Origin: Oceanospirillaceae bacterium
Lineage (GTDB): Bacteria > Pseudomonadota > Gammaproteobacteria > Pseudomonadales > Oceanobacteraceae
DNA length: 61,644 nucleotides
NCBI GenBank assembly: GCA_002706025.1
Contig: PAJK01000034.1
Coordinates: forward strand, 21,533 to 83,176
Direction of reading: 5' to 3'
The position numbers were made by a program, and so were the translations under genes. Positions 14,592 to 60,496 of this stretch are shown piece by piece; position 1 is the stretch's first letter, and every line of letters starts with the position of its first letter. The notes under the pieces were generated by a model. That model had not been told where the DNA came from and searched no databases. It worked only from the letters and a program-made list of their open reading frames with translations.

Positions 14592-14624
14592 AATAAAAAT
14601 GCCGGCTTAGCCGGCATTTTTATT
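14592..14624. terminator. Bidirectional intrinsic terminator
   Basis: AATAAAAATGCCGGC-TTA-GCCGGCATTTTTATT between convergent genes. Confidence 0.9.
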
Positions 14625-14647
14625 CTTCTTTTTTAATCAGGATAAAC

Positions 14648-17086: not shown

Positions 17087-17133
17087 CAGTTTTCTCCATG
17101 CTGGGCCCGTAAGGCCATCTTTGCTGTTCGCCT

Positions 17134-18114: not shown

Positions 18115-19628
18115 ACGACTTCCTCTTCAATACGGATCACATCAGTATGACCATCAAGAAACTCCAGAGCGTAGGCCAGCTCTCCCGGGGCTTCAGCATA
18201 GAGAGTAAATAAAGGTGCCCCGCAATCGATAACGTCTCCTGACGCTACATGCAGTTCAATGCCCGCAGCCTTTGCATTTGGAGCCCCGGCCAGCGATGCC
18301 AGCTTGGCCAGAAAGCGGTTATTGAAATAAGAAACGACGCCTTTTTTCTCCGCCCGGACACAATGACGGAATTCAGCCATCTGTGGCTCATGAAATCCGC
18401 CCTGAGCCTGACAGATAGCTTCAAATTTTTGCATGGCCGCACCACTGAGCAACGTACTTTGCGCCAGCTCATAGCCCTGACCATCCGCAACTTTACCCGC
18501 CATTTCCAGCAGAATACCGGCCAGCTGTAGTGACTTTTCGCGCAGATCCTGCGGCGCGTGACCATCATTGCGCAGCACCTGTAACACATCCCGGGCTTCA
18601 AGCGCCGGGCCAATACCGCGGCCAACAGGCTGACTGCCATCACTGATAACCGTACGCACATCCAGTCCCAGCGCCTGGCCGGTTTTTTCCAGCAGGCTGC
18701 GCAGCGTCTGCGCCATTGTCTGAGAGCGGACCTTGGCCGTTGGACCAACCGGAATATCAATCAGCACCTGTTTCGATCCGGCAGCGACTTTCTTGGAAAT
18801 AACCGACGCCACCAGCTGACCTTCACTGTCGAGATCCAGCGCCCGCTCAACACGAATGATGAGATCATCGGTTGGACTCAGGCTGACCGAGCCACCCCAG
18901 GCCAGACAGGCACCCTGTTCTTTTACGACGCTCTGCATGGCATCAAAGGACAATGCTACCGGCGTCATGGCTTCCATGGTGTCTGCCGTTCCGGCCGGAG
19001 AGGTGATCGCACGGCTGGATGTTTTCGGCATCAGCAGACCGTTAGCAGCAACAATCGCTACAACAATGGGGGTTGTACGGTTACCCGGCAGACCGCCGAC
19101 ACAGTGCTTATCGAGCACCACATCACTGTGCCAGTCAAACTGCTGACCAGCAGCAACCATAGCGCGGGTAATGGCGATGGTTTCATCCAGACTCAGGCGG
19201 TCGCCGGCGCAGGCAGTCACATAGGCAGACAGCTGAATGTCACTGTACAGGCCATTGTTAATATCACGCACAATCGCGGCGGCCGATTCATCAGTAAACG
19301 CCTGACCGTAGAGCTTGCCGCGCACAAACGACATGGAATCCACAGGATGGGCGTGACGGAAGGTCGCTTTGCTGCCTTCTTCAGGACAGCCCAGACGGTG
19401 CCACGCGGCCTCTGAAAGACCGGCCTGCTGGTGGGAAAGCAGTTCATTTGAAACCAGCACCAGGGTGGCGACGACACTTTTGTCCGCAACGCTGACCTCC
19501 ACCCGGGTGTGAGCAAAAAATCCCTCAGAAATGGCAACATGACAATCCTGTCGCATATATACGACAGGTTCCTGATGGGTATTCACGCCCAAACGATGGA
19601 GATAGAGATAATCGGGATTGGATTCCAT
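18111..19628 (-). CDS. AMP/NMP phosphorylase-type member of the thymidine phosphorylase family
   Basis: About 100-aa N-terminal extension; DKHCVGGLPGN, KTSSRAITSPAGTAD and GRGIGPALEA motifs; AGGA RBS before ATG 19628. Confidence 0.88.
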   Translation of the reverse strand: MESNPDYLYLHRLGVNTHQEPVVYMRQDCHVAISEGFFAHTRVEVSVADKSVVATLVLVSNELLSHQQAGLSEAAWHRLGCPEEGSKATFRHAHPVDSMSFVRGKLYGQAFTDESAAAIVRDINNGLYSDIQLSAYVTACAGDRLSLDETIAITRAMVAAGQQFDWHSDVVLDKHCVGGLPGNRTTPIVVAIVAANGLLMPKTSSRAITSPAGTADTMEAMTPVALSFDAMQSVVKEQGACLAWGGSVSLSPTDDLIIRVERALDLDSEGQLVASVISKKVAAGSKQVLIDIPVGPTAKVRSQTMAQTLRSLLEKTGQALGLDVRTVISDGSQPVGRGIGPALEARDVLQVLRNDGHAPQDLREKSLQLAGILLEMAGKVADGQGYELAQSTLLSGAAMQKFEAICQAQGGFHEPQMAEFRHCVRAEKKGVVSYFNNRFLAKLASLAGAPNAKAAGIELHVASGDVIDCGAPLFTLYAEAPGELAYALEFLDGHTDVIRIEEEVV

Positions 19629-22051: not shown

Positions 22052-22867
22052 TCAAAAATCCGTCCGCCACTGCAAAAGATAACGGTGAGACTGGGTACGA
22101 CTTTCAGGCTCATAGAAGGAGAGCGTACCGGCACTACCTCGCTCTGATGCCGCAGCCCAGCCATTGCGGAATCGGTAAGACAGCGACAGCTCGCTGGAGC
22201 GCCAGCTCAGCAGTGGATATTCTGCAGACAGCCACCATTCGTGGCCATCAGCCAGATCAACATCCGCCTTGCCGTAACCATAGTCAGTGAAATCCACCTC
22301 CAGCTCTCCGTTAAACAGCAGACGGTACCCACCCTTAACCTGCAGAAGGCGGTCGATGAAAACGACATCGTAGCCAAGACCAGCGGACACGAATAACCAT
22401 TGATAGTATTCATCCAGCGCACCGGTAATATTGTTGGCGCGAATCATACGCTGCCAATCGGTTTTACCAGCAGATAACAGTAAAGCTGGAATATAGCCAT
22501 CAGCATGGGTAAATGCCCCAACTTCATAGCTGCGGAAATTTTCATCCGTGGTTGTTCTGGAAGGCACACCCGACTGACTCTCGCCAATATACTGCAGTGA
22601 ATCATAAGAGCGATGAAAACCAACACGCCAGCTGACCGCCTGCGTCACAGGGCCTGCTACGGAGACACTCAGGCTCTTCATCCAGCCAACTTCCCGGTCC
22701 AGCTCACGGCCACGCTGGTCGTACTCATGATACGACATACGTTCAACACCAAAGCCTGCTACCAGCTGATAAGAAGAAACTTCATCCTGCTCAGCATAAA
22801 CGGCACAGCAGAAGACACTGCTCAGAAGCAGAAGCACGAAGCGGTTGTTACAAGTGTATGCAGACAT
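22052..22867 (-). CDS. Outer-membrane beta-barrel protein of unknown function
   Basis: Sec signal (AVYA|EQ), alternating amphipathic strands rich in Y/W/F, C-terminal QWRTDF. Confidence 0.7.
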   Translation of the reverse strand: MSAYTCNNRFVLLLLSSVFCCAVYAEQDEVSSYQLVAGFGVERMSYHEYDQRGRELDREVGWMKSLSVSVAGPVTQAVSWRVGFHRSYDSLQYIGESQSGVPSRTTTDENFRSYEVGAFTHADGYIPALLLSAGKTDWQRMIRANNITGALDEYYQWLFVSAGLGYDVVFIDRLLQVKGGYRLLFNGELEVDFTDYGYGKADVDLADGHEWWLSAEYPLLSWRSSELSLSYRFRNGWAAASERGSAGTLSFYEPESRTQSHRYLLQWRTDF

Positions 22868-23138
22868 CGTCTCTCTTTTATCCTTTGCCTTCTACTTTCT
22901 GACTTTAATCCTAAGCTTTTTAAAAAATAAGAAGCGACTGATTTCTTAAAACTACTCATCAATCACAGGCTCAAGGTTAATCATTACTGAAAACGGCCAA
23001 GTATTGATCAGAGCCGTGGCTTCCGTTTTATACCATATTTCCGCCGTGAATCTTTACAGCAATCAACGCAGGACTTAACCAGAGCACAGCACTGAAGCCC
23101 CATGCAAAAGAAAAAACATAAAGCACTTATCTCTGCGC

Positions 23139-23168
23139 AAAAAAATGGGGCTGCAATGCAGCCCCATT
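23139..23168 (-). terminator. Intrinsic terminator after lipoprotein 5
   Basis: AATGGGGCTGC-AAT-GCAGCCCCATT with U-tract on minus. Confidence 0.85.
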
Positions 23169-23192
23169 AATGCAATGAAGGTAATCGCCCGC

Positions 23193-24170
23193 TTACAGAG
23201 CAACACCGTCCAGTACGATAGTCGGTTCGTTACCACAACCGCTGAAAGTGACGCTCAATTCAGTGCCGTCATCATCGGTAAGCACGATGCTGCCACTGCC
23301 AATGCTGCCATCGCTACAGATGCTGATATTGCTGGCATCCAGTGTTACTGAACCGTATTCAGGATGGTAGAAGGTTGCTTCAACAGAGTACTGACCATCA
23401 ATAGAGCTTACGCTCGCATCACTCACCTGGTAAGTGGTACCGTCAGAGCCCACGAACTGGTCGTAGTAGGTACAGTCGTAGTTGCTGTTGCACGTCATTG
23501 AACCTGTGATGCGCACAGTCTCGCCATTCATTGTGTAGGTCAGATTCCAGGATGAATAAGACAGCTCGTATGATTGGCTATCTGATTCAATAACATAGGT
23601 ACCGTTAACAGTTTCAGTGATGCCCTCATAGGTGTACTGGAGGTTGTTGTAACGCAGAGTAGTACGTGTGGTGGAACCGCTGGTCGAGCTGGTAGCGTCC
23701 ACAGTACCGTTCATAGTCATACTGTATTCACAGTAGTCATTATAAGTAATAGTAAAGTCATTTTCGGAGCCGGAGTAATTAACAGAACCACCACAGCTAC
23801 CAGCGACGGTTTCGTCCACTGCCACAGGCATAGACAAGCTGCTCTGTTCAAAGCCAGCAACCGTTTCTGCGGTAATATCCAGCACAGTCTTCACTGCTGT
23901 AGAGTCTGCTGCTGCTAAAATACCGGTCGGAAGGTTGCCGACATCGGCACCGGATTCATCGCTTTCAATCAGATCACTGACGATCTCACTGGAGCTGGAA
24001 GCAAAATCAGAACTGTTATCGGTATCAAAACTGGCTGGCGTTGTGACACCATCGTACTCAACGATATCATCATCAGAACCGGAAGAGCTGCCGCCGCCTC
24101 CACCACCGCCGCCACACGCGGTAAGTACACCAGTCACTGCAAGTAATAAAAGATAATTATATTTTGACAT
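23193..24170 (-). CDS. Acidic Ser/Thr-rich lipoprotein (array paralog 5)
   Basis: Lipobox VLTA|C, Gly/Ser linker, GSCGG..YNDYC and C..DGS..G....TFSGC motifs; GGAG RBS before ATG 24170. Confidence 0.85.
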   Translation of the reverse strand: MSKYNYLLLLAVTGVLTACGGGGGGGGSSSGSDDDIVEYDGVTTPASFDTDNSSDFASSSSEIVSDLIESDESGADVGNLPTGILAAADSTAVKTVLDITAETVAGFEQSSLSMPVAVDETVAGSCGGSVNYSGSENDFTITYNDYCEYSMTMNGTVDATSSTSGSTTRTTLRYNNLQYTYEGITETVNGTYVIESDSQSYELSYSSWNLTYTMNGETVRITGSMTCNSNYDCTYYDQFVGSDGTTYQVSDASVSSIDGQYSVEATFYHPEYGSVTLDASNISICSDGSIGSGSIVLTDDDGTELSVTFSGCGNEPTIVLDGVAL

Positions 24171-24578
24171 TTTTTGTCTCCATGACAATACGAGGGCTTA
24201 GGCCGGGCAATATCCAGCAAATTGAATATACAACAGACATATTCCCAACACACCTCTGATTACACGATCAACATCATATTTTTACGCTGGGTAACAATTA
24301 ATTTGATATCTGTCATTCTGTGGCAGGAAATAACCCTGACTACGATAACAAATGAATTACAGATCCGACAGAAAGGCTGTCTGAGATTGTATGTAGCAGC
24401 ACTTTTAAAAATTCAGGTATTATTAATTTTATCATTACTTAATAACAACATAGTTATTAAGTAATAACTACTGAAATATACGTCGCGCACACGCTCTTTT
24501 CATACTTCAAAAATCTGACGCGAAACCTTGCGCAATGATTCGCCCGCTGACATCTGCTATTTGCTGCAAAACCCGTCT

Positions 24579-24593
24579 TTGACTAAGAGTCAA
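24579..24593. promoter_or_regulatory. Perfect palindrome TTGACT-AAG-AGTCAA
   Basis: Directly readable; partial copy TGACTAAG at 24623-24630. Confidence 0.45.
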
Positions 24594-24819
24594 TTATATG
24601 TCCTTATTGAGCGCCATATTTATGACTAAGGAATCAATGGTTGATCTGAGCTATAGTCTCTGTAGTGCCGTACACGGGTTTCATACTCAGCAGATGGTGA
24701 GCATTGCTCAGTAAAGATCAGTACAGAACAATTGCAGCCAGCACAGAGCAGTACTTATAACGCTTACATGAACAGAAGCCGCATCTAAGAGCGGGCGAAG
24801 AGCGGGTGACCAACAGAGA

Positions 24820-25128
24820 ATGAACGTCCTTCCAGGCAGTGTAATCTCAACAGCTTATGTCGATAACGCCAGCAGGAAACCTGCGTACGGTGACAGGCTG
24901 CCTGAGGAAGAGAACCAGGGTTCTCGTGAGCCATATGAGACCATCAGCAAGCCCCAGACCGTCGCCGAATACATTCCTGCCTACCCTGACGACACCGAGC
25001 TACAGCAGTACCGGGAACGCCAAAACCAGAACGAAAGTACAAATAATTTCAGTAAAACATTTATGGCGTTTTCTTCCGATATGCCCGACACCAACAGCAA
25101 GGGACGATTCGTTGATATCACAGTCTGA
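24820..25128 (+). CDS. Hypothetical 102-aa hydrophilic protein
   Basis: AGAG upstream of ATG, followed by a terminator; ends GRFVDITV. Confidence 0.55.
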   Translation: MNVLPGSVISTAYVDNASRKPAYGDRLPEEENQGSREPYETISKPQTVAEYIPAYPDDTELQQYRERQNQNESTNNFSKTFMAFSSDMPDTNSKGRFVDITV

Positions 25129-25162
25129 TAAAGGGATTTAAATCGAAGATAAAAACAGGAAG

Positions 25163-25195
25163 GAAAAGGGTCAGCAGTCCGCGCTGGCCCTTTTC
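25163..25195. terminator. Bidirectional terminator
   Basis: GAAAAGGGTCAGC...GCTGGCCCTTTTC between convergent genes. Confidence 0.75.
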
Positions 25196-25300
25196 TGTTT
25201 CATTTCCATTTTCTGTTTTAACTCTGCTCTGGTGCGCTTCTGCAACATTCCCTGCACCCATCCCTGCACCAAATAACACAACAGCAAAGAAGCTTTTCTG

Positions 25301-26461
25301 TTACCGGACTGCCGGCACAAGCTCCAATGAGTAGTCGTTGCAGCCATTAACGGTAACCCGCCAGGTGTCTCCAGAGCCTGTCATCGTGAACTGGCCAGAG
25401 CGCAGACCGGGTTCATCAAGGCACCGCTGCACACTGCGTTCAACAGCATAAGCCACCCGGCCAAAATCAGACAGATCAACCGCCCCCTGCTGCCAGCGAT
25501 AAACCTGGCCTCCCGCGGAGTAAAGTATATCCGTCTGAGCTGAATCATCTGAATCAAAGAATACCGTGGACTCCAGCAGGTGATTGCCGGCAATGACCTG
25601 TTCATTCACGACTCTGCGGTTACGATAACGAACGTCCCGGCCTGCAGTGCTACCGGATACCGTTGAGACATGAGACTCACCTTCCACCCTCAGACGGGCC
25701 TGATCGCCGTTATCGTCGATAGTAAAGTCACCAGAGAACTCTGCACTGCGAACCCGGTCGTTGTACGCCGGCATAACACCGTTATCGGTATAGGAATGAT
25801 CTGAATAAACAACATTTCCGCTGCCATCGAAAAAGACGCTGTCGTCGCAGAAACCAGTGAATACAACACCGGTATCTGTGTCCAGCTCCACTCTGTCTAT
25901 GCCGGCAGCTTCAGGCGCACTATGCTGATAATCCGCTGTAATCTGTACCGTACCGCCGCAGTCGCCAGGCTGGTTATCGCTGTATTGACTGTCTATAGCA
26001 GAAGATGGCGATGATACTGACGGCGCCAAACCCAAAAATACCGCCTGTTCAATAAATGGCAGATAATCCAGATTATTAACAAAAGCAGTCATACTGACGA
26101 TTTCCGGATCATAAATGATCTGAGAGTGTTGATAGTAATGATCGGATAGAGACTGCAGATACAGAAACTCTGCGACCTGCTCAGCGATCGCTGAGCTGTT
26201 GTCGCTGTTCAGTGCGGCTGGCGTACTATCGCCGGTAAACGTCAGGGTACGTACTTCCGGCACAGATGAATCACCGTTGCCTGTATTGCCGTTACCTGGA
26301 TCGCCGTTGTTGCCATCATCCGGATTAGCAGCGATATCTGTATCTGCACCACCGGAAGAAGCACCACCGCCTCCTCCGCCACCACACCCCGTCATCAACA
26401 AAGAAACGCTGGCGACAGCAATAAAAGAGAGAGACTTCAGACTGCTTATACTACTTCCCAT
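25301..26461 (-). CDS. Acidic lipoprotein (array paralog 4)
   Basis: Lipobox LMTG|C, poly-Gly linker, GDCGG..FTGFC and C-terminal C.....G....TVNGC. Confidence 0.85.
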   Translation of the reverse strand: MGSSISSLKSLSFIAVASVSLLMTGCGGGGGGGASSGGADTDIAANPDDGNNGDPGNGNTGNGDSSVPEVRTLTFTGDSTPAALNSDNSSAIAEQVAEFLYLQSLSDHYYQHSQIIYDPEIVSMTAFVNNLDYLPFIEQAVFLGLAPSVSSPSSAIDSQYSDNQPGDCGGTVQITADYQHSAPEAAGIDRVELDTDTGVVFTGFCDDSVFFDGSGNVVYSDHSYTDNGVMPAYNDRVRSAEFSGDFTIDDNGDQARLRVEGESHVSTVSGSTAGRDVRYRNRRVVNEQVIAGNHLLESTVFFDSDDSAQTDILYSAGGQVYRWQQGAVDLSDFGRVAYAVERSVQRCLDEPGLRSGQFTMTGSGDTWRVTVNGCNDYSLELVPAVR

Positions 26462-26560
26462 CTTATATCCTTAATTGTTCTGTATTGCTTAAGAATTTCG
26501 GTATATCTATTCGATTATCCCAATTAAACACAACCGGATAATTGGCATGACCAATTGTAT

Positions 26561-26588
26561 TTAAAACCGAACAATTGTTTGGTTTTAA
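26561..26588. promoter_or_regulatory. 28-bp near-perfect palindrome
   Basis: TTAAAACCGAACAATTGTTTGGTTTTAA, one mismatched pair, 100 bp upstream of paralog 4. Confidence 0.6.
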
Positions 26589-26778
26589 CTTCAAATTAAC
26601 TAATGAAACCTAGCGAATCAAATGAAATTCGTAAAGTTAAATATCCGAAAAAGATTTAAATAATGGATATCAAACAACTGCACTTAAACTTTCGAAAGGA
26701 TAAAGGCAAGAGGAAAGAAGTCGTTCAGGCAATCAATGTATAGAGATGATTATCTTTTCTTTATTCACTATCAGTAAT

Positions 26779-26815
26779 AATGGGATAACGAAGAATTCTT
26801 CTTCGCTATCCCATT
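26779..26815 (-). terminator. Hairpin after lipoprotein 3
   Basis: 17-bp stem AATGGGATAACGAAGAA / TTCTTCGCTATCCCATT with one G-U pair on minus. Confidence 0.7.
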
Positions 26816-26826
26816 CAATAATCAGC

Positions 26827-28065
26827 TCAGAACTCTGTAGGAGCCAAAGCGACAGTCGGTGCAACGCCACACCCATTAAAGGTAATCGTCGCAGCAGTAG
26901 AGAAAGCATCCCAGAACTCAATGGTTCCGGTATTAAAGCCAGAGCCATCGGCACAAAATGTTAGATCCTGAGCATCAGTGAATATTACGCCATAGCCGGT
27001 GTACGATGCTTCCAGACCGAGATCCAGATATCCCCCTTCTAAAGAGACACCTCTCAACTGGTGAATCAAAAATACTGATCCATCATAGGCGAGAATTTCA
27101 TCGTTGGTGTAAGATTCAATTTCACTTTCTGAGTCATATGAAGACAGGTGAATTTCAGAGGATTCAACGATCTGACCATTAATAGTCAATCGCTTGTTAT
27201 CGACTTGCTCACCATTACCAGCATAAACACTGGGGTCTGTACGGTTATCTGCATATTCAAGTCCGGAATTGGTCTTATTCTGCTGATAACGGCCGGTCAG
27301 CCCCTCTGCTGAGACAGTTACATCGACGATTAATTCAGCATTAACTTCGAATGAACCATAATCGTATCCACCTTCAGTACTGTCCGAATCGTTATAAAAA
27401 CTTACATTACCCGCAAATTCTGCGGTTCCGGTAAATACGGTAGCATTCTCATTGTCTCCAAAGGAGTCATATACACAGTAATCTTCAGAGAAGTTGGCAT
27501 TGGAATCTTGCGTAAGAAGGGTCTCCCAGGCAGCTCCGACCTCACTGTCTTCGCCATAGCGTTGCTCGACAGAGGATTCATAAGAGAGCTCTGCTGTCCC
27601 ACCACACTGTCCTGCCCGGGTTTCACTGCCAGACATGGTGTTCTGGCCGACAGTCTCCAGATCCAGATCTAAAGCTGAAGTTGAGCGGCGACTATAATCC
27701 TGAAAGTAATAACCACCGTCTTCACCTAACAATTCTTCTTCCAGAAATTGCATTTCTGCCAGGTATGGCTGTACGGTTTCAACAAGACCTCTGCCATAGG
27801 TGAGTTTTATAATCTCTGCTGCCACGACATCCAGATCAGCCTCTGAAAGATCCGCGTCATCATCTTCACCGGTAAATACCAATGTTTCTGGCTGAGGATC
27901 AACGATCGGCTCTGGTGTTGGTTCAGGTGATGGCTCCGGCGTTACAACGACATCAGGTTCTCCGGAGGATGAACTGCTTCCACCACCACATCCAGCCATT
28001 ACTAACGAACAGGTTCCTACCGCCACACATATAATATTTTTTAATAATTTTGATGAATCACTCAT
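26827..28065 (-). CDS. Acidic lipoprotein (array paralog 3)
   Basis: Lipobox VMAG|C, EP(S/T)P linker, GQCGG..EDYC and FCADGSGFNTGTIEF..ITFNGCG. Confidence 0.88.
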   Translation of the reverse strand: MSDSSKLLKNIICVAVGTCSLVMAGCGGGSSSSSGEPDVVVTPEPSPEPTPEPIVDPQPETLVFTGEDDDADLSEADLDVVAAEIIKLTYGRGLVETVQPYLAEMQFLEEELLGEDGGYYFQDYSRRSTSALDLDLETVGQNTMSGSETRAGQCGGTAELSYESSVEQRYGEDSEVGAAWETLLTQDSNANFSEDYCVYDSFGDNENATVFTGTAEFAGNVSFYNDSDSTEGGYDYGSFEVNAELIVDVTVSAEGLTGRYQQNKTNSGLEYADNRTDPSVYAGNGEQVDNKRLTINGQIVESSEIHLSSYDSESEIESYTNDEILAYDGSVFLIHQLRGVSLEGGYLDLGLEASYTGYGVIFTDAQDLTFCADGSGFNTGTIEFWDAFSTAATITFNGCGVAPTVALAPTEF

Positions 28066-28147
28066 ATACTTCCCTTAATTATTTCCTTTCAATTTAATTT
28101 CCCTACTATAAACAGGGCACCAAAGACATATCATTGCGACATATCAA

Positions 28148-29947
28148 CTATTGGCTTCTGACTACTCTGGGCTTACAGATTTCATCCAGTGTGAAATCAG
28201 CGCCCCAGACATTGCCATTACATGCATTTTTCAGATTTGATATAACTTTGGAGTCGTTCTCCTCCCCATCAGTAACGATCAAATCTGAAAACAGCGGAAA
28301 TGGCAAACCAGACATCAAAACGGAATCATCAGTCAGCGCAACAACCCCAAAATCACAATCCGCATCAGAAACGATCTGACGCCCTGCCTCAAAGAACTGG
28401 CACTCTGAACGGGACTGCCCTTCGTCAAATCGTGATATGTGCTTGTTGAAGTAAGCGACTGCTGATTTTCCTGCTTTCAAGGCATTATTATATAAACCCT
28501 CTGCCACACTATCTGCATCTTTCCCTGTCACTAACACAAGAGGGATCATGCCGCTGTTTTTTACAAGCTTTGCGAGAATCTTTTTATAAACGGAAAGGTC
28601 TGTGTAAGTGCCAATACCTGGCTGGGAATTTACCTCGCAGATAGCCGCACCGCTCTCCTTCCAGGATATTCTTATATCCGGAATCAATAAATCGACACCT
28701 GCCAGATCGAGTCTCAGCACTTTCACTGCTCTTATTGCCAACGCAGAATTATCAGGATGAACGTCATCAAAAACAGCAACAGGCATCCCCCCCGACGATA
28801 CGTTAGAAATTCTGCGGAGCGTCACGACCTGATCGGGCTTTGGGATACTTTTTTCGGTCAGTTTCTGTTTAGCCAACATGAATTTGGCTTCATCATCAAA
28901 CTCTATGCGCGTCAAAGCCGTACGTCGTTCATTTCCCCGCTCCGGACTTGCGTTAACCTGATCAATTAACTGCCTGACGGTCTTAACACCATCCCCTGTC
29001 ACCTGCGCCGGCTGACGTTCAATAGCCCAGACAAGTTCACCCTCAAAGACCGTAAGACGGTAATCTTTCCCAGAGAAATGCTTTTCAAGCATGATTCTCC
29101 GGCCTTTTTCAGCGCTTTTAGCATAGGCTTCACGCAGTTCTTTGTCATTTTTGATTCCGGCAATTACACCATAGCCACGGTCAAGATCCAGCGGTTTCAC
29201 TACAACCGGGTAACCCATTTTTCCGGCAAGATGTACAGCATCATTTACGTTATTCACGGTAACAGAAGGTTGAACCGGCAGCCCATTCATCCTCAGCATC
29301 TGAACCGTGGCCATCTTATTTTTGGCCATATTAGAGCCGACAACCGATGTCGTATCAGTAAAGGTACTGTCCAGCCAACGGCTGTTTGCGCCATAGCCAA
29401 TCTGATGAGCGCGGGCAGGCAATGAAAAATAAGGGAGATTCAACTCATATGCAGCCCTGAGAAAAGACCACATGGTTGTAGACTTTAACGCGACCGAACG
29501 AATTTCAGCGAATATTTTCTGAAAGTCCTGCTGACGGGTATAGCGGCTTCTTGTTAAATCTTTCTCATGCAAAAGTGAGATAAACCAGGCAATTAACTTT
29601 GTAGTAACCGCCGCTGAAGCCGGCGTTACAGGCACCAGCAACTCAGCTTCAGTCTCTCTACTGTCGAGCACCTGACCTGACTGCCACACCGGAACCATGG
29701 CATCCATCTGAATATTAAACACAGCCGCCAGAATAAACTCTGAAACATCATGCAGAAAGTCTGCTGCTTCCGGAAAAACATGTTCACTAAAGTCTATGCC
29801 AGAAAGCTGAGAAGCTGCCTGACAGTAGCTACTGAAGTCGACATTTCCTTCAAGGTCAGTGCGTACAGATACAATAATGGAAGGATTGGGTAATCCTACC
29901 CGATATGCAGAAGTGGAATACTTTTTTTGACTAACTTTCCAGTTCAT
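28148..29947 (-). CDS. Cyanophycin synthetase-like ATP-grasp protein with degenerate Mur-ligase domain
   Basis: IGYGANSRW, KNKMAT..LR..GLPV, YPVVVKP, GKDYRLTV, NVSSGG, AGVDLL and ICEVNSQPG; VTGKDADS where CphA has VTGTNGKTT. Confidence 0.75.
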   Translation of the reverse strand: MNWKVSQKKYSTSAYRVGLPNPSIIVSVRTDLEGNVDFSSYCQAASQLSGIDFSEHVFPEAADFLHDVSEFILAAVFNIQMDAMVPVWQSGQVLDSRETEAELLVPVTPASAAVTTKLIAWFISLLHEKDLTRSRYTRQQDFQKIFAEIRSVALKSTTMWSFLRAAYELNLPYFSLPARAHQIGYGANSRWLDSTFTDTTSVVGSNMAKNKMATVQMLRMNGLPVQPSVTVNNVNDAVHLAGKMGYPVVVKPLDLDRGYGVIAGIKNDKELREAYAKSAEKGRRIMLEKHFSGKDYRLTVFEGELVWAIERQPAQVTGDGVKTVRQLIDQVNASPERGNERRTALTRIEFDDEAKFMLAKQKLTEKSIPKPDQVVTLRRISNVSSGGMPVAVFDDVHPDNSALAIRAVKVLRLDLAGVDLLIPDIRISWKESGAAICEVNSQPGIGTYTDLSVYKKILAKLVKNSGMIPLVLVTGKDADSVAEGLYNNALKAGKSAVAYFNKHISRFDEGQSRSECQFFEAGRQIVSDADCDFGVVALTDDSVLMSGLPFPLFSDLIVTDGEENDSKVISNLKNACNGNVWGADFTLDEICKPRVVRSQ

Positions 29948-29990
29948 AAAGCCAGATAACCATATACAAAGTTATCAGTATATTACCATC

Positions 29991-30019
29991 AAAAAAAAAG
30001 AGGGCATAAGCCCTCTTTT
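29991..30019. terminator. Intrinsic terminator after lipoprotein 2
   Basis: AAAAGAGGGC-ATAA-GCCCTCTTTT. Confidence 0.85.
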
Positions 30020-30033
30020 CTTATCAAGCTACA

Positions 30034-31302
30034 TCATTCCGCTACAGGAACCGGAGCAACATACGGCTCGATAGTTGGAGCAGTGTCACAGCCGGTAAAA
30101 GTGATGGTGCCATAAGCGTCATCATAATCACCGAACATAAGAGTACCAGCGGAGAAGCCAGAGCCATCGTCACAGAGCGTCAGTTCGTCACCTTCGAAGT
30201 AAACATAGCCAACACCAGACAATGCAACACTACCGCCTTCACTCAAATCAAAGACATTGTAATCTGGACGCGAGATCGCTACGTAATCCACCAGGAAAAC
30301 CGAATCAGCAAAAGCAATCAGCTCTTCGGAATCACCAGTTTCGGTAGTTTCGTTATATACATAAGTTGATTTGTATGTGCGCTCAAGTGTCTGACCACGG
30401 AAAGTAAAGAGTTCATTATTAATCTCTTCATAATCCTCGCCGTAGCTAGGGGTTTCTGAACGTTCATCATCAAAATACGTGTTAGTTTCAGAGAAATCAA
30501 ACTGATAACGAAGCGACTCATCTTCAACTGTAAAAGTCAGGTCGCCAGACTTCTTAACAGAATATTCGTCACGCTCGAAACCATCCTCGCCATCATAGTC
30601 TTCGTAGTAACTTTCAGAGTATTCACCTTCTAAATGACCCGAAACTCCGATCTGAGGAGCGCTTTCAGCAAGCATGCCAGGGCCTCCGTAATAGCTAAGC
30701 GACTGACAATAATCGTCAGAGAACTCGGCATTTAAAGTCATATCCTCAGTATAATCTTCACCGTAAGCACCTTCTTCTTCTGCCATACTGAACTCGTAAG
30801 AAGATTCTTTAGCAGCTGTAAACGTACCACCACAGCTACCCGCAACGGTCACTGATTCAGAGTCAGAAGCACCGGCGACCAGTTCCAGATCCAGGTCCAG
30901 AGCGTCGGTAGCAGAATAAGGGCCAAAACCGATATTGCCGAGGTATTGAAGCGGCATTCCATTAAACACGTTATCTACTTGACGAGGAATGGAACTGGTT
31001 ACGTCATCAGCCATTTCCAGCAATACAGAAGCCAGAGTCACTTTAATTACTTCAGAACCCACGGCACTGAGATCAGCAGTACTGAAATCAGCATCATCTT
31101 CCGAGCCAGTGTAAGTCAGAGTCTGCGGAGTTGGTTCCGGAGTTGGTTCCGGAGTTGGTTCTGGTGTCGGTTCTGGTGTAACAACAGGATCCTGCTCATC
31201 AGACGATGAGCTGCTGCTGCCACCACAGCCAGCCATAACCAGAGAGCAACTGGCTACAGCAATGTAAGCAAGGTTTCTTAATGTTTTAGATGAGTTAGAC
31301 AT
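30034..31302 (-). CDS. Acidic lipoprotein (array paralog 2)
   Basis: Lipobox VMAG|C, (EPTP)x4 linker, GSCGG..DDYC and LCDDGSGFSAGT..ITFTGC. Confidence 0.88.
   Translation of the reverse strand: MSNSSKTLRNLAYIAVASCSLVMAGCGGSSSSSSDEQDPVVTPEPTPEPTPEPTPEPTPQTLTYTGSEDDADFSTADLSAVGSEVIKVTLASVLLEMADDVTSSIPRQVDNVFNGMPLQYLGNIGFGPYSATDALDLDLELVAGASDSESVTVAGSCGGTFTAAKESSYEFSMAEEEGAYGEDYTEDMTLNAEFSDDYCQSLSYYGGPGMLAESAPQIGVSGHLEGEYSESYYEDYDGEDGFERDEYSVKKSGDLTFTVEDESLRYQFDFSETNTYFDDERSETPSYGEDYEEINNELFTFRGQTLERTYKSTYVYNETTETGDSEELIAFADSVFLVDYVAISRPDYNVFDLSEGGSVALSGVGYVYFEGDELTLCDDGSGFSAGTLMFGDYDDAYGTITFTGCDTAPTIEPYVAPVPVAE
31126..31173 (-). repeat. 12-bp coding tandem repeat (EPTP linker)
   Basis: CGGAGTTGGTTC x3 perfect plus one degenerate copy. 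Confidence 0.9.
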
Positions 31303-31511
31303 GAAAATTCCCTTCAATTATTTATATGGTTTTATTCGTCATACGTTCGCTACGGAATATGGCACCCCGAAATCTGACCATATGGCTTTAAGCTCACAGC
31401 GAAACAAAATAACAACTCAAAAAGCTATCATCATGTTCATAAATCTGTTGATTTCTATTTTTGCGCCAGATGTGAATCATTTATTCTGATGAATACATCA
31501 GCACTTTGTAA

Positions 31512-52807: not shown

Positions 52808-55800
52808 TTAATTTACGGTTGCATGTAATTCTTGTAAGCGATGAACTTCTTTCAGACCTTCAGAACGCAGCGCTTCAACCACGGCTTCTGCCCCCGCCAT
52901 GGTGGTGGTGTAGTACACCTTATGCTGCAGCGCACTGCGACGGATATCCGCTGAATCAGCAATTGCCTGCGGACCGTCAGTGGTATTAATGATCAGAGAG
53001 ACTTCATCATTTTTGATCATATCAACGATGTGTGGACGACCTTCGGTCACCTTGTTCACGCGCTTAACGTCAACGCCAGCTTCTTTCAGTACACGACAAG
53101 TGCCTTCGGTAGACACCAGGCTGAAACCGATTTCAACCAGGCCTTTCGCCACAGCAACGACATTTTTCTTGTCGGCATCACGCACTGACAGGAAAGCCAC
53201 ACCTGAGTCCGGAATGCTTGCGCCGGCTCCCAGCTGAGCTTTGTAATAAGCTTCACCGAAAGTTTTACCTGCACCCATTACTTCACCGGTGGATTTCATT
53301 TCCGGTCCAAGAATCGGGTCAACACCCTGGAACTTGTTGAACGGGAACACGGCTTCTTTCACGGAGAAATACGGTGGAATAATTTCCGTGGTAAAGCCCA
53401 GTTCAGCCAGTGTTTTACCCGTCATCACTTTGGCCGCAATCGCTGCCAGAGAGGTACCGATACATTTGGATACGAACGGTACAGTACGGGATGCACGAGG
53501 GTTCACCTCGATCACATAGATCTCGCCATCCTGATAAGCCAGCTGAGTGTTCATCAGACCGACAACGCCCAGCTCCAGAGCCATGGCAGCCACCTGCTCA
53601 CGCATGGTGTCCTGCACGTCTTTTGGCAGACTGTAAGGCGGCAGAGAACAGGCGGAGTCACCGGAGTGAATACCAGCCTGTTCAATATGTTGCATGATAC
53701 CGCCAATCACTACCTGTTCGCCGTCACATACGGCATCAATGTCCACTTCAATGGCACGATCAAGGAAGTAATCCAGCAGAACCGGTGAATCGTTAGAAAC
53801 TTTTACCGCTTCCGTCATATAACGGCGCAGAGCAGTTTCATCGTTGACGATTTCCATCGCACGACCACCCAGAACATAGGAAGGACGCACAACCAGCGGA
53901 TAACCGATTTCCAGTGCCTTAACCACGGCTTCTTCAGCAGAAGTTACCGTCGCATTCTGTGGCTGCTTCAGTCCCAGACGCTGAATCATATGCTGGAAGC
54001 GCTCACGGTCTTCCGCACGGTCGATCGCTTCCGGTGACGTACCGATAATCGGCACACCGGCTGCTTCCAGTTCTTCCGCCAGCTTCAGTGGTGTCTGACC
54101 ACCATACTGTACGATCACACCTTTCGGTTGTTCTTTATCGACAATTTCCAGCACGTCTTCCAGTGTCACCGGCTCGAAATACAGACGGTCTGACGTGTCA
54201 TAGTCAGTGGACACAGTCTCCGGGTTACAGTTCACCATAATGGCTTCATAACCCAGTTCTTTGGACGCCAGCGCTGCGTGTACACAGCAATAATCGAATT
54301 CAATACCCTGACCGATACGGTTAGGACCACCACCGAGCACGATGATTTTTTCACGGTCAGACGGGTTTGCTTCACACTCTTCTTCGTACGTGGAATACAT
54401 GTACGCAGTATCAGTCGCGAATTCAGCCGCACAGGTATCCACACGTTTATAAACCGGGCGGATATTCAGTTTCTGACGGTATTTACGGAAGGTTTTTTCA
54501 GTAACACCCATCAGCTCAGCCAGACGCGCATCGGAAAAACCTTTACGCTTCAGGCGATAAATGCGATCTGCATCCAGAGACTGCAGGCTGCTTTGTGCAA
54601 CCGCAGCTTCTTCTTTGATCAGATCTTCGATCTGCACCAGGAACCACGGATCAATAGCAGAGTGCTCGTACACTTCGTCAACACTCATGCCAGCACGGAA
54701 GGCATCGCCCACGTACCAGATACGCTCGGAACGCGGTGTACGCAGTTCAGAAATAATTTTGTCTTTGGCACCAGCGTCGTTCAGATCCACTTTCGGATCA
54801 AAACCAACAGAACCCACTTCCAGACCGCGCAGTGCTTTCTGCATGGATTCCTGCTGAGTACGGCCAATCGCCATGACTTCGCCCACAGATTTCATCTGAG
54901 TGGTCAGACGGCCATCTGCCTGTGGGAACTTTTCAAAGGTGAAACGTGGAATTTTGGTCACCACGTAGTCGATGGACGGCTCGAAAGACGCCGGGGTTGC
55001 ACCGCCGGTAATGTCATTCTGCAGTTCATCCAGGGTGTAACCTACTGCCAGCTTGGCAGCCACTTTAGCAATCGGGAAACCGGTTGCTTTGGAAGCCAGT
55101 GCAGAGGAACGGGATACCCGCGGGTTCATTTCGATCACGACCATACGGCCGTCTTTCGGGTTCAGACCGAACTGAACGTTAGAACCGCCGGTTTCCACAC
55201 CGATTTCACGCAGTACTGCCAAAGAGGCATCACGCATGATCTGGTATTCTTTATCGGTCAGCGTCTGTGCAGGTGCCACGGTGATAGAGTCACCTGTGTG
55301 CACCCCCATGGCATCGAAGTTTTCGATGGAGCAGATGATGATGCAGTTGTCGTTTTTATCACGCACAACTTCCATCTCGTACTCTTTCCAGCCGATCAGT
55401 GATTCGTCGATCAGCAGCTCATTGGTTGGCGACAGGTCCAGACCACGGGTACAGATTTCTTCGAATTCTTCTTTGTTATAAGCGATACCACCACCGGTAC
55501 CACCCATAGTGAAGGAAGGACGGATAATGCATGGGAAGCCGAGGCCTTTCTGCACTTCACGGGCTTCTTCCATACTGTGCGCAATACCGGCACGCGGACA
55601 CTCCAGACCGATGGATTTCATCGCCTGGTCGAAACGGTCACGGTCTTCGGCTTTGTCGATGGTATCCGCGTTGGCACCGATCATCTCCACACCGAATTTT
55701 TCCAGTACACCAGCCTGTTCCAGACCCAGCGCACAGTTCAGTGCAGTCTGGCCGCCCATGGTTGGCAGCAGCGCATCCGGACGCTCTTTTTCGATGATCT

Positions 55801-56026
55801 TGCTTACCGCTTCAATGGTGATCGGCTCAATATAGGTCGCATCAGCCATGGCCGGATCGGTCATGATGGTGGCCGGGTTAGAGTTCACCAGAATAACGCG
55901 GAAACCCTCTTCGCGCAGCGCCTTACAGGCCTGGGCACCGGAGTAGTCAAACTCACAGGCCTGGCCGATAACGATTGGGCCAGCGCCGATAATCAGAATA
56001 CTTTTTATGTCAGTACGTTTTGGCAT
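52808..56026 (-). CDS. carB: Carbamoyl-phosphate synthase large subunit
   Basis: [17 protein letters not shown]; two ATP-grasp halves; MGS domain. Confidence 0.99.
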
Positions 56027-56045: not shown

Positions 56046-57188
56046 TTACGCTTTGGCGGCTGTCATCAGTTCAATGAAGTGGTCGAACAATGGGGCAACA
56101 TCTTTCGGACCCGGGCTCGCTTCAGGGTGACCCTGGAAGCTGAAAGCAGGCTTATCGGTACGGGCGATGCCCTGCAGAGTGCCATCGAACAGCGATTTAT
56201 GAGTGGCTTTCAGATTGGCCGGCAGACTGTCTTCGTCAACAGCAAAACCGTGGTTCTGGGAAGTGATCATAACCTTGCCGCTTGCCAGATCCTGCACCGG
56301 GTGGTTACCACCGTGGTGACCATGACCCATTTTTACAGTCTTCGCTCCGGAAGCCAGCGCCAGCAGCTGGTGACCAAGGCAGATACCAAAAACAGGGATT
56401 TCGGTTTCCAGAATATTCTGGATGGCAGTAATAGCGTAATCACATGGCTCCGGGTCACCAGGGCCATTGGACAGGAAAACACCGTCCGGATTCATCGCCA
56501 GTACGTCTGCGGCCGGAGTCTGGGCCGGAACAACCGTCAGCTCACAACCACGCTCCGCTAATAAGCGCAGAATGTTGCGCTTCACACCGAAGTCATAAGC
56601 AACGACTTTGAATTTTGCATCTTTCAGTTCGCCGTAACCTTCGCCCAGAGTCCAGTCTGTTTCTGTCCACTGGTAGGCTTCTTTAACAGTCACTTCTTTC
56701 GCCAGATCCATGCCTTTCAGGCCAGGGAATGCCGTTGCCTGTGCCTGTGCTTCAGCGATGTTGTCTTCGCTGTAAGCGTCTTCAGCCACCAGAATGCAGC
56801 CATTCAGAGAGCCTTTTTCACGCAGAATGCGGGTCAGGCGACGGGTATCAATATCAGCAATACCACAGACGTTGCGTTCTTTCAGATAAACATCCAGAGC
56901 CTGTTCGCTGCGGAAGTTAGAAGCGATCAGAGGAAGATCGCGGATGATCAGGCCTTTGGCAAAAATGGCGGCAGATTCTTCATCTTCGCTATTGGTGCCG
57001 TAGTTACCGATGTGTGGATAGGTTAAAGTGACAATCTGGTTAGCGTAGGATGGATCAGTCAGAATCTCCTGGTAGCCCGTCATGGAGGTGTTAAATACAA
57101 CCTCTCCAACAGCGTGACCAGTTGCACCAATGCTGGTGCCCTTAAAGATACTGCCGTCCTCAAGCGCTAGAATGGCTGGCGTAGACAA
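56046..57188 (-). CDS. carA: Carbamoyl-phosphate synthase small subunit
   Basis: [33 protein letters not shown]; TTG start behind GGGGA. Confidence 0.98.
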
Positions 57189-57258
57189 AGTTAATTCCCC
57201 GAACAAAGAAACAAAATCTGCAGATGACGCACCGCTGAACCGCCTAGGCTCTGGCCGT

Positions 57259-57296
57259 AAAAAAGCGGAATGGTGACATTCTGACTCCATTCCGCT
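57259..57296 (-). terminator. Terminator hairpin inside the carA leader (attenuator candidate)
   Basis: AGCGGAATGG/CCATTCCGCT stem followed by a U-tract, between the promoter and the start codon. Confidence 0.7.
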
Positions 57297-57359
57297 AATT
57301 TCGGGCTGTTTTCGGCGGCTTTTCAAAGTAACCGCAGTACGTGCTTTAATTAACCCTAA

Positions 57360-57388
57360 AGGATACTGAAAACAGTGGCTTATGTCCA
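57360..57388 (-). promoter_or_regulatory. Sigma70-type carA promoter
   Basis: TGGACA-N17-TATCCT on minus. Confidence 0.6.
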
Positions 57389-57547
57389 TTCATAAAGTAC
57401 CCTTAAGTAGCAGCCCTCTTGTCCGGCAACGACGCCGCAGTCCTCATTTCTCCGCACACACTCCCACAACCCCATACACCCGGTAACAACCACCCGGGCG
57501 CGAAAATTCAGCGTGAAATATCAGTACTTCTACCGACTCAATGACAG

Positions 57548-57689
57548 ATTACATATTGTTACAATATATTACATACAAATTTACACTCGATAAAACTTCA
57601 CTCCATCGCCTGAGAGTTCTTAAATAATCGTTATTGAGAGGGTTAACTACTGAGAGAACCTACAATAGTGAAAACCATTCTCAATAACG
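57548..57689 (+). promoter_or_regulatory. Complex upstream region of the HapR-like gene
   Basis: Three 10-bp-period TTACA repeats; inverted repeat 57629-57689; Fur-like 7-1-7 at 57669-57683. Confidence 0.5.
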
Positions 57690-57762
57690 CACATTTTCAC
57701 TGAAAGACCGGGCAGACCGTGCTGTCCGCCGATACACAATACAATATTCTAAGAGGTACTTT

Positions 57763-58371
57763 ATGCCCGTAGCTGTCGAAGGTCGTCGCCGCCTGCAACC
57801 CGAAGAGCGCAAAAAACTGCTGCTGAGAGACGCCGTTGAAGTGTTCGCAAAACGCGGCATCGGCCGTGGTGGTCACACTGAAATTGCCGAACTGGGTGGT
57901 GTATCCGTTGCCACCGTGTTCAATTACTTCAAAACCCGCGAAGCGCTGGTTGATGCTGTCCTGACCGAAGTGGAAGACTACCTGCTGGGCATGGCCGAGC
58001 AGATCAACGAGGAATACAGCAACCCGGTTGAAGCGATCCGCGCCAACGTCAATGGCTTCCTGCAGGCCTGTGAAGACAACCCGGATTACATCAAAGTATG
58101 GCTGGAGTGGAGTGCTTCGGTACGCGATGAAATCTGGCCTCAGTACCTCGCCTTCCAGAATAAAATTCTGGATATCTTCAGTGATCAGGTAGACCGCGGT
58201 ATCAAAATGGGTCTGCTGGATATGGGCCTGGCACCGCGCGAACGTGCACGCTGGGCACTGGGTAACTCACAGATGCTGGTGTCGATGATCTTTGATCCGG
58301 CCGGTAAACCAGCGGGCATGGAGCAGATGGTCGAGCGTGGTTTCGACCATATCCTCGGTGTAAAGCACTGA
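57763..58371 (+). CDS. TetR-family regulator of the Vibrio LuxR/HapR/SmcR/LitR quorum-sensing master-regulator type
   Basis: EVFAKRGIGRGGH..IAE...VSVATVFNYF.TRE.LVD.VL and KVW.EWSAS.RDE.WP match the HapR/LuxR signature. Confidence 0.88.
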   Translation: MPVAVEGRRRLQPEERKKLLLRDAVEVFAKRGIGRGGHTEIAELGGVSVATVFNYFKTREALVDAVLTEVEDYLLGMAEQINEEYSNPVEAIRANVNGFLQACEDNPDYIKVWLEWSASVRDEIWPQYLAFQNKILDIFSDQVDRGIKMGLLDMGLAPRERARWALGNSQMLVSMIFDPAGKPAGMEQMVERGFDHILGVKH

Positions 58372-58387
58372 TCTGAAAAAGCCTCAC

Positions 58388-58425
58388 CCATAAAAAAACC
58401 GCTCAATTGAGCGGTTTTTTTATGG
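58388..58425. terminator. Bidirectional terminator (tetR / dapB)
   Basis: CCATAAAAAAACCGCTC-AATT-GAGCGGTTTTTTTATGG. Confidence 0.9.
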
Positions 58426-58450
58426 CGTTCTCAATACAGGTAAACCGGCA

Positions 58451-59284
<834 letters not shown>

Positions 59285-59374: not shown

Positions 59375-60496
59375 TCAGATGTCTTCGAAGAACTTCTTCA
59401 CACCTTCAAACCAGCTTTTCTTCTGTGGCGAGTGTTTTTCACCGGTCAGCGATTCCTGGAACTTCATCAGCAGATCTTTCTGCTCTGAGGTCAGGTTAAC
59501 CGGCGTTTCTACCTGCACACGACACAGCAGATCACCAGCCGGGCCACCACGCACCGGGGTGACACCTTTACCACGCAGACGGAAAAGTTTGCCGGACTGA
59601 GTTTCGGCGGGAATCTTCAGTTTGACCCGGCCATCCAGTGTCGGCACTTCCAGCTCACCACCCAATGCTGCATCAACAATGCTGATCGGCACATCACAGT
59701 ACAGGTTACGGCCATCACGGTGGAACAGATTATGTTCACGCACGCTGACCTGCACATACAGATCACCAGCCGGACCACCCATGGCACCCGCTTCGCCTTC
59801 ACCTGCCAGACGAATACGGTCACCGGTATCCACACCTGGCGGAATTTTCACCGACAGGGTTTTGGTTTCTTCTTTTACACCGCGACCGTGACAGCTGGTG
59901 CACGGATCATCAATCATAGTGCCCTGACCACGACAGCTCGGACAGGTCTGCTGCACCGAGAAGAAACCCTGCTGCATACGTACCTGACCAGCACCGTTAC
60001 AGGTGGTACAGGTTTTTGGCTTGGTACCCGGTTTGGCACCGGTACCATCACAGGTTTCACAGGATGCCAGCGTCGGGATGCGGATTTTCTTCTCGATACC
60101 GCGCACCGCTTCTTCCAGCGTCAGCTCCAGCGTATAACGCAGATCGGAACCACGTTGCGGGCCGCCGCGACCACCGCCGCCGCCACCAAAAATATCGCCG
60201 AACACATCGCCGAAAATATCGGAAAAGTTGGCACCACCTGCACCACCACCAAAGCCACCACCGGCCTGACCATCAACGCCAGCGTGACCAAACTGATCAT
60301 AAGCCTGACGTTTCTGCGCATCGCCCAGCACTTCGTAGGCTTCGGTCGCTTCCTTGAATTTTGCATCGGCGTCTTTATCGTCCGGGTTACGGTCCGGGTG
60401 ATACTTCATCGCCAGCTTACGATAAGCTTTTTTCAGTTCTTTCTGGTCAACGTCACGGCTGACTCCAAGAACCTCGTAATAATCTCGTTTTGACAT
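59375..60496 (-). CDS. dnaJ: Chaperone DnaJ
   Basis: J domain with HPD, G/F region, four CxxCxGxG repeats. Confidence 0.99.

Follow-up and report, generated by a model that had tools for sequence, protein, structure and literature searches.

The gene at positions 57763-58371 of a 61,644-nt stretch of an Oceanospirillaceae genome (GenBank assembly GCA_002706025.1, contig PAJK01000034.1; this whole stretch is called the window) encodes a 202-aa protein that is a LuxR/HapR-type member of the TetR family, and is neither a classical local TetR repressor nor an equivalog of the curated HapR family. We propose, with a probability of roughly 55%, that it is an autoregulated DNA-binding regulator of the LuxR/HapR type which is controlled at its promoter and receives inputs other than those of Vibrio. 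According to this proposal, the protein would bind as a homodimer to AT-rich, partly palindromic sites of about 22 bp, of the type TTATTGATA-N4-TATCAATAA, at many promoters, and would feed back on its own promoter via a TATTGA box (block B) at the transcript start, as LuxR and HapR do. It would act mainly as a repressor, or activate via a surface other than the patch that contacts the RNA polymerase (RNAP) alpha subunit in Vibrio. Its level would be set at transcription by a putative factor acting on an array of GTTACA repeats (block A), and not by pairing of Qrr small RNAs (sRNAs) close to the ribosome-binding site (RBS). The initial annotation of this DNA had read the gene as an ancestral or rewired LuxR circuit with different inputs. 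Overall this interpretation is partly supported, the rewired circuit with different inputs being still conjectural.

The gene and its translation start are as follows:
57763-58371, plus strand: open reading frame (ORF) of the HapR-like TetR-family regulator, 202 aa, ATG start
57751-57756, plus strand: Shine-Dalgarno-like RBS AAGAGG, 6 nt 5' of the ATG, read from the sequence

Family assignment and predicted fold

Three motifs had been quoted as marks of the HapR family, namely EVFAKRGIGRGGH, VSVATVFNYF and KVWLEWSASVRDEIWP, and all are present in the translation exactly as quoted. The homology to LuxR/HapR/SmcR deduced from them is right. The best NCBIfam model for the protein was NF040929 (quorum_TF_HapR, expect value (E) 1.3e-34), and the 18 top sequences of a phmmer search against PDB were all LuxR/HapR/SmcR/OpaR proteins (E 7.7e-37 to 2.1e-28), the next entry being a generic TetR at E 6e-10. 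Identity to the Vibrio cluster representative was 43% over residues 8-153. The AlphaFold2 model, built from an alignment of 21 sequences of the window protein and its close orthologues (the window clade, described below), has ten helices, with a predicted local distance difference test (pLDDT) score of 90.4 and a predicted template modelling (pTM) score of 0.85. When this model was compared to PDB with Foldseek, the top 43 matches were all LuxR/HapR/SmcR chains (TM score 0.72-0.91 over 182-199 columns, 29-37% identity), the best being Photobacterium marinum HapR (8ZF2), P. profundum SmcR (8ZF3) and the V. alginolyticus LuxR-DNA complex (7AMN). These were followed by the acyl-CoA and steroid-sensing TetRs AibR, KstR2 and a FadR-like protein, and by generic TetRs. 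Both in sequence and in predicted fold, the protein is closer to the Vibrionaceae LuxR/HapR proteins than to other characterised TetRs.

The architecture is that of a TetR/AcrR protein: an N-terminal arginine arm at residues 8-10, a TetR-type helix-turn-helix (HTH) domain at residues 20-66 (Pfam TetR_N, PF00440; E 2.8e-9, 37 bits against a cut-off of 24) and an all-helical C-terminal domain of about 130 aa. However, the protein missed the equivalog cut-off of NF040929, since it reached 119.6 of the 350 bits required, with residues 6-131 alone aligned. A canonical Vibrio control (P0162) scored 398.6 bits, the divergent Vibrionaceae proteins of Thaumasiovibrio and Vibrio sp. qd031 scored 218.7 and 236.7, and other HapR-like proteins scored 142 (Agarivorans), 120-130 (members of the window clade) and 111 (Pelagibaculum). 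The window protein is part of a HapR-like shell that surrounds the Vibrio regulators and lies outside the equivalog group.

DNA-binding, polymerase-contact and pocket residues

Among the TetR proteins, a 12-residue N-terminal "LuxR arm", in which Arg9 and Arg11 read the minor groove, has been described as unique to LuxR proteins (PMC8034623). Residues contacting DNA were listed from the LuxR-DNA crystal structures described in the same paper, and numbers in the window protein are those of Vibrio minus 1. The arm is kept in the window as G-R8-R9-R10-L, with R8 corresponding to Arg9 and R10 to Arg11; within the clade R10 is invariant and R8 is found in at least 90% of the proteins. The base-contacting residues Ser49, Ala51, Phe54 and Asn55 are identical (S48, A50, F53 and N54 in the window), the last of them being required for flexible site recognition. 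The backbone contacts R17, R32, R36, T52, Y56, T59 and R60 are also identical (R16, R31, R35, T51, Y55, T58 and R59). Thus seven of the nine listed backbone positions match, Pro58, which is replaced by Lys57, being the sole difference and Ser49 being counted among the base contacts. Residues R10, R16, R31, R35, S48, A50, T51, F53, Y55 and R59 are invariant in the clade.

The residue mapping was done on the cluster representative P0001, which is listed as 100% identical to the window protein and comes from a 1549-nt ENA contig. At residue 8, which corresponds to the minor-groove Arg9 of LuxR, P0001 has Leu and the window has Arg (codon 8, 57784-57786). Natural variation or a sequencing difference may account for the discrepancy at this functionally important position.

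The surface used for activation is another matter. In SmcR, LuxR and HapR the positive-control residues S76, L139 and N142 contact RNAP alpha, and each of the substitutions S76A, L139R and N142D abolishes this contact (PMC8191795). All three positions are changed in the window: S76 to L75, L139 to I138, which is conservative, and N142 to D141, the same change that abolishes alpha contact in SmcR. The relatives have L/I/T, I/L/M and K/E/T/D, respectively, at these positions. As two of the three contacts are clearly replaced, the protein is probably mainly a repressor, or else it activates via a different surface.

The pocket of SmcR that binds Qstatin and thiophenesulfonamide inhibitors is formed, as we take it partly from PDB entry titles, by F75, L79, I96, M100, F115, N133, Q137, H167, C170 and Y171. 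All ten mapped residues differ in the window (L, A, N, F, L, Q, L, L, S and Q), the alignment past residue 150 being less certain. These replacements bring in the possibility of a HapR-like protein that is gated by a ligand and controls a remote, specialised regulon, for instance of hydrocarbon or lipid metabolism, having only its DNA-binding module in common with the Vibrio proteins. The pocket positions, although all replaced, are conserved in the clade (W113, L114, E115, W116, R121, W125, Y128, R161, W164 and others), the next-best folds AibR, KstR2 and FadR-like are acyl-CoA or steroid sensors, and the titles and abstracts of papers on the hosts describe them as hydrocarbon degraders. On the other hand, the conserved C-domain residues may serve dimerisation instead, and the acyl-CoA sensors match the fold far more weakly than HapR and SmcR do. 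We consider such a ligand-gated regulator conceivable but doubtful.

Locus conservation and phylogeny

The genes around the regulator, assigned from their ORFs and synteny, confirm its reported position between carA and dapB, with carB and carA on one side and dapB, dnaJ and then dnaK on the other, all on the minus strand:
52808-56026, minus strand: carB
56046-57188, minus strand: carA, divergent neighbour, likely TTG start at 57188
58451-59254, minus strand: dapB, convergent downstream neighbour, with Pfam DapB_N/DapB_C in the orthologous loci
59375-60496, minus strand: dnaJ, followed by dnaK

Given the TTG start of carA, the intergenic region between carA and the TetR gene extends from 57189 to 57762. 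One genome per species was scanned, which gave 77 loci in which CarB, CarA, DapB and DnaJ were placed by tblastn. The order carB-carA, TetR gene, dapB-dnaJ was found in 45 of the 47 loci of the window clade, the two exceptions being short contigs, and it is kept down to 41% identity of the TetR protein (locus L050), with gaps of 385-900 nt between carA and the TetR gene. The locus occurs in Thalassolituus, Bacterioplanes, Bacterioplanoides, Oleispira, Oceanobacter, Parathalassolituus and related metagenome-assembled genomes (MAGs). In a search of 5.8 billion proteins, orthologues 55-85% identical came from Thalassolituus, Bacterioplanes, Bacterioplanoides, Venatoribacter, Oleispira and Oceanobacter; a frequent IMG label for them is [quoted passage not shown], and NCBI lists them simply as TetR/AcrR. 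The closest locus is that of Thalassolituus sp. UBA1087, with a TetR protein 86% identical, and since CarB and DnaJ are 96% and 97% identical there, the host is a Thalassolituus-like member of the Oceanospirillales (Thalassolituus is placed in Oceanospirillales, Oceanospirillaceae, in the NCBI taxonomy). The non-Vibrio host supposed earlier is in agreement with this. Vertical inheritance has kept the TetR gene at a single, constant locus in the Thalassolituus/Bacterioplanes/Oleispira/Oceanobacter group, and the gene is an old family feature.

Some loci have additional DNA between the TetR gene and dapB. In three Oleispira genomes it amounts to about 7-8 kb (L020, positions 10717-18465, L022 and L023), and in L020 it encodes a 2582-aa, adhesin-like protein whose sole match is a GLUG motif. 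T. maritimus-type loci (L040-L045) have about 1 kb more, which in L044 contains a 254-aa ORF without a Pfam match. Neither of these two ORFs is a signalling gene.

HapR-like TetRs form a wide radiation. A HMMER pass over 1.84 billion representatives returned 2182 clusters (at 50% identity) with E up to 1e-3, 222 with E up to 1e-10 and 26 with E up to 1e-30. Those of the nearest clusters for which names were recovered include Agarivorans, Pelagibaculum, Thaumasiovibrio and Vibrio sp. qd031, together with many unnamed metagenomic proteins, and the locus scan also returned alphaproteobacterial, Binatia and Nevskiaceae MAGs. The gene is not the isolated oddity that it had seemed, given this radiation and its constant position in the clade. 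Since the radiation is large and IMG already labels such proteins as HapR-like, a homologue outside the vibrios is no surprise in itself.

A neighbour-joining tree of 55 sequences was computed with 200 bootstrap replicates; the HapR and SmcR reference sequences in it are consistent with the aligned PDB entries as well as with P0162 and P0168. Vibrionaceae formed a clade without the window protein in 199 of 200 replicates, the window clade was joined by P0125, P0126 and P0129 in 106, and Agarivorans-type proteins fell inside the smallest clade joining the window and Vibrio clades in 171. An exclusive sister relation of the window clade to Vibrionaceae, seen in the first tree, was unsupported on bootstrapping (6/200), and the ancestral circuit of the initial annotation is thus conjectural. 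Of the two outcomes that it had named as counting against its reading, neither was found: the protein is not placed among generic TetRs and the genome is not that of a Vibrionaceae member.

Transcription of the TetR gene

Six marine metatranscriptome runs contained the region, as assembled contigs of flat depth and without strand information. The depths of the TetR gene, carA and dapB were 1647, 624 and 293 in run X13, 431, 181 and 70 in X16, and 22, 28 and 10 in X20, so that the TetR gene ranged from about equal to carA up to 2-6 times carA and dapB. High-depth contigs started at 57633, 57648 and 57686, with one in X15 starting at 57477, and low-depth intergenic contigs ended at 57632 in two runs. 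At the other end, contigs of the TetR gene stopped at 58417-58421 in X9, X13 and X16 and at 58367-58389 in the other runs. The gene is well expressed in situ as a single-gene unit, with abundant RNA from about 57600-57633 and a 5' untranslated region (UTR) of about 130-160 nt. The ends reached in X9, X13 and X16 lie within a terminator shared with dapB:
58386-58428, both strands: bidirectional intrinsic terminator A7-CCGCTCAATTGAGCGG-T7, common to the convergent TetR gene and dapB, with a 16-nt GC-rich palindrome

Its plus strand folds with -26.7 kcal/mol (z -8.0), the minus strand also gives a strong fold, and Rfam gave weak matches to terminator-type leaders at the same place.

Upstream elements

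The upstream regions of 17 loci from three genera were aligned; at a mean identity of 40% they show two sharply conserved blocks, and a purine-rich GAGG-type block is aligned 5' of the ATG in all of them. The elements in the window are:
57547-57601, plus strand: block A, GT(T/A)ACA repeats at 10-bp spacing, then GTTACATACAA...TTTACAC...CTTCAC
57631-57653, plus strand: block B, TTATTGAGAGGGTTAACTACTGA, candidate operator for autoregulation, located at the 5' end of the transcript or shortly behind it
57629-57689, plus strand: inverted repeat or RNA hairpin where the 5' UTR begins, with arms CGTTATTGAGA and TCTCAATAACG, -22.2 kcal/mol, z -4.6

Block A is also present in Oceanobacter, Parathalassolituus and L050, and was not found in the upstream regions of Oleispira. 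Its exact pattern occurs once per 20-kb locus, at the position upstream of the TetR gene alone (9793-9813 in L005, 9797-9817 in L006, 9782-9802 in L011, 9804-9824 in L036 and 9826-9846 in L037). A sigma70-like match, ATGACA-18-TATATT, lies at 57541-57570. The phased GTTACA repeats resemble what we presume to be sites of OmpR/PhoB-type response regulators; this was the only resemblance that survived, by-eye readings of block A as a sigma70, sigma54, sigmaE/extracytoplasmic function, TyrR or CRP element having been dropped. Block A is probably the promoter together with a putative array for binding of an activator or repressor.

In block B the TAtTGA core is nearly invariant in the 17 regions, about 104-143 nt before the ATG. 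The repDNA site of LuxR is TTATTGATAAAATTATCAATA. The half-site consensus of LuxR/HapR is TTATTGATA, arranged in 22-bp sites as TTATTGATA-N4-TATCAATAA (PMC8034623). The left half of block B has eight of the nine bases of this consensus and the right half four of nine. The Oleispira regions contain CTATTGATGAACTTATTTATGA at -132, with the box TATTGATGA, and at about -245 a palindromic box, TAgTGATAAgcTTATCAgAAT or TGATAAgcTTATCA. HapR represses its own promoter at the transcript start. As block B would lie at just that place, and as LuxR also inhibits its own transcription (PMC8034623), autoregulation is reasonable to suppose.

The arms of the 5' UTR hairpin are an inverted pair of TATTGAGA boxes; in the window and its nearest relatives the inverted copy of the box lies 37 nt downstream. 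The hairpin is present in the window and in L004, L009, L013, L015, L016 and L017, and absent from L001, L006-L008, L010 and L014; several lineages have two arms unlike those of the window that nevertheless pair with each other. A partner arm was found in about half of the orthologous regions (mean 7.5 pairs against 6.9 in shuffles), and the hairpin was rejected as a family-wide element, since RNAalifold gave no consensus for 16 sequences.

Several points weigh against the proposed autoregulated regulator of the LuxR/HapR type. The 5' end was derived from assembled contigs without strand and of flat depth, and no convincing -35/-10 pair in block A is conserved across the upstream alignment. 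Only the left half of block B resembles the LuxR consensus; the best match of the upstream regions to the full 22-bp consensus averaged 12.1 of 18, against 11.4 in shuffles, and no LuxR 22-mer with three or fewer mismatches occurs anywhere in the window. Moreover, the C-domain is just about 20-30% identical to the Vibrio proteins, and with all ten pocket residues differing, it is possible that the protein binds a small-molecule ligand and undergoes classical TetR-style induction. In this lineage the regulator and the alpha subunit may have evolved together, and therefore the loss of activation is unproven.

Quorum-sensing components

If the gene encoded a genuine master regulator of quorum sensing, its mRNA would be controlled by Qrr-type sRNAs under LuxO, or by a comparable density-sensing phosphorelay, with genes elsewhere in the genome, and the protein would drive group behaviours at high density, as in vibrios. 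The protein is indeed the closest relative of LuxR/HapR in sequence and fold, its DNA-contact residues are identical, its 5' UTR is long and its expression is high. Nevertheless, no match to Qrr or another relevant RNA family at the Rfam gathering threshold was found in the window, nor a Qrr match at E up to 10 within 57100-58500. The Rfam Qrr family is not known outside Vibrionaceae. A Qrr-pairing pattern, for which there was no positive control and to which we give no weight, returned nothing beyond chance in the window and nothing in the loci, Vibrionaceae included. The stretch from block B to the RBS shows no conservation between genera in the upstream alignment, which argues against Qrr pairing there, because a site for an sRNA should be conserved.

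The gene content points the same way. Among the 20 other ORFs of the window that were scanned, none encodes a LuxO-type sigma-54 activator, a histidine phosphotransfer (HPt) protein or an autoinducer synthase; they are housekeeping or metabolic (dnaE, tatD, phosphoketolase, PhzF-like and others) or have no Pfam match. The hpt neighbour attributed to the Vibrionaceae genes is borne out by Enterovibrio (L066), where a 176-aa phosphoribosyltransferase gene is divergent beside the HapR-like gene, and this context is missing from the clade loci, which have carA and dapB instead. The sub-threshold NF040929 score also counts against a master regulator of the Vibrio kind. The literature search found no paper that links HapR with Thalassolituus, Oleispira, Bacterioplanes or Oceanobacter, and PDB code 8ZF2 was in no paper found. 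We regard the quorum-sensing explanation as very unlikely, though the data neither establish such a role nor exclude it.

A run of minus-strand ORFs at 22052-31317, of 270, 330, 385, 411 and 426 aa, is without Pfam matches at E up to 1e-5 and forms an uncharacterised cluster. Within it, at 28148-29947 (minus strand), is a 598-aa protein with weak ATP-grasp matches.

A more general form of the proposed promoter-controlled regulator may be put forward tentatively. The complete DNA-reading module of LuxR/HapR, arginine arm and recognition helix together, would predate the Vibrio circuit, or have spread beyond it, and in this lineage would serve an abundant global regulator set by its promoter, through an OmpR/PhoB-type factor on the GTTACA repeats and autorepression at TATTGA, without LuxO or Qrr.

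The carA control region

The divergent neighbour has control elements of its own:
57388-57360, minus strand: conserved sigma70-like match to a carA promoter, TGGACA-17-TATCCT, which fits a start near 57335-57350
57254-57306, minus strand: carA leader hairpin followed by a U-run; 57240-57320 folds with -32 kcal/mol, z -4.5

In three runs the carA RNA contigs end at 57334-57336, and some 270-300 bp lie between this end at about 57335 and block B. Relatives also contain the hairpin sequence AAAAAGCGGAATGG...CCATTCCGCTTTT, and the leader resembles a transcription attenuator acting on carAB. A weak Rfam match to the Pseudomonas sRNA P31 (24 bits, under the cut-off) overlaps the leader hairpin on the plus strand. 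Between the carA and TetR transcripts, at 57358-57632, RNA depth was low (7.5 in X16, 7.3 in X15, none in X20); the two starts are therefore separate and well spaced, without a compact common control region.

These data bear on the notion that the gene is a local, ligand-responsive TetR regulator of its neighbour, by analogy with RutR, with carAB (pyrimidine and arginine supply) as the first candidate target and dapB as the second. In E. coli the TetR protein RutR acts at the carAB promoter. The divergent pairing with carA is missing from the clade only where contigs are too short, the RutR models (TIGR03613 and NF011584) are second-best in NCBIfam (E 2.9e-10), RutR is among the PDB sequence matches (E about 5e-8), and the pocket residues are unlike those of the reportedly ligand-free Vibrio proteins. 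However, the RutR models gave 40.4 and 37.1 bits against cut-offs of 368 and 230, the 385-900 bp between the genes exceeds the short distance usual in divergent TetR pairs, and carA has its own conserved promoter and attenuator-like leader at a distance from the TATTGA box. The order carB-carA-dapB-dnaJ-dnaK is a conserved housekeeping block, so that an insertion in it can persist without a functional link, and the gene is not adjacent to dapB in several Oleispira and T. maritimus-type loci, where 1-8 kb of other DNA intervenes. The LuxR arm and the recognition helix, moreover, point to LuxR-type sites. A local role of this kind would thus seem unlikely.

Implications

LuxR/HapR is the output switch of quorum sensing in Vibrio and a drug target, and has been treated as a speciality of Vibrionaceae. 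The same DNA-reading apparatus is a constant feature of a second marine order, to which the main oil degraders of cold and coastal waters belong, while the polymerase patch, the pocket, the locus and the upstream control are all different in the window clade. The clade could offer a natural separation-of-function series, in which properties of the DNA-binding module might be told from those of the Vibrio wiring. It may point to a major unstudied regulator in hydrocarbon-degrading Oceanospirillales and, if the tentative general form given above is true, this naturally Qrr-free regulator would show the role of the master regulator before sRNA control.

Comparison with known systems

The E. coli RutR system shares with the window the TetR family and an association with carAB, as target or as neighbour. 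RutR is not known to have the LuxR arm, and it has TTGACCAnnTGGTCAA as its box. The box upstream of the window gene is of the TATTGA type, and RutR is not among the leading folds.

The HapR-like TetRs of Agarivorans, Pelagibaculum and the alphaproteobacterial and Binatia genomes belong to the same radiation around the Vibrio proteins and are similarly sub-threshold for NF040929 (111-142 bits); one UniRef name of the Agarivorans protein is "Quorum-sensing regulator of virulence HapR". Unlike in the window clade, their genomic contexts have neither carA nor dapB. The window clade has a conserved C-terminal helix of its own, ERARWxLGNxQMLVSM, and ends in GFxHxLG.

The closest known system is that of the Vibrionaceae regulators LuxR, HapR, SmcR, OpaR and LitR (NF040929), which have the same size of about 200 aa and, over the full length, the same TetR fold, in addition to the 43% identity given above. 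They have in common with the window protein the arm with both arginines, an identical VSVATVFNYF helix and the W(L/F)EWSAS motif, and in the window clade a TATTGA-type box lies upstream of the gene itself. The window protein differs from them in the RNAP alpha contacts, which are L/I/D in place of S76/L139/N142, in a pocket replaced at ten of ten positions, in its location beside carA and dapB and not hpt, in that neither a Qrr in the window nor a conserved pairing block was found, and in its place outside the clade that Vibrionaceae form in 199 of 200 replicates.

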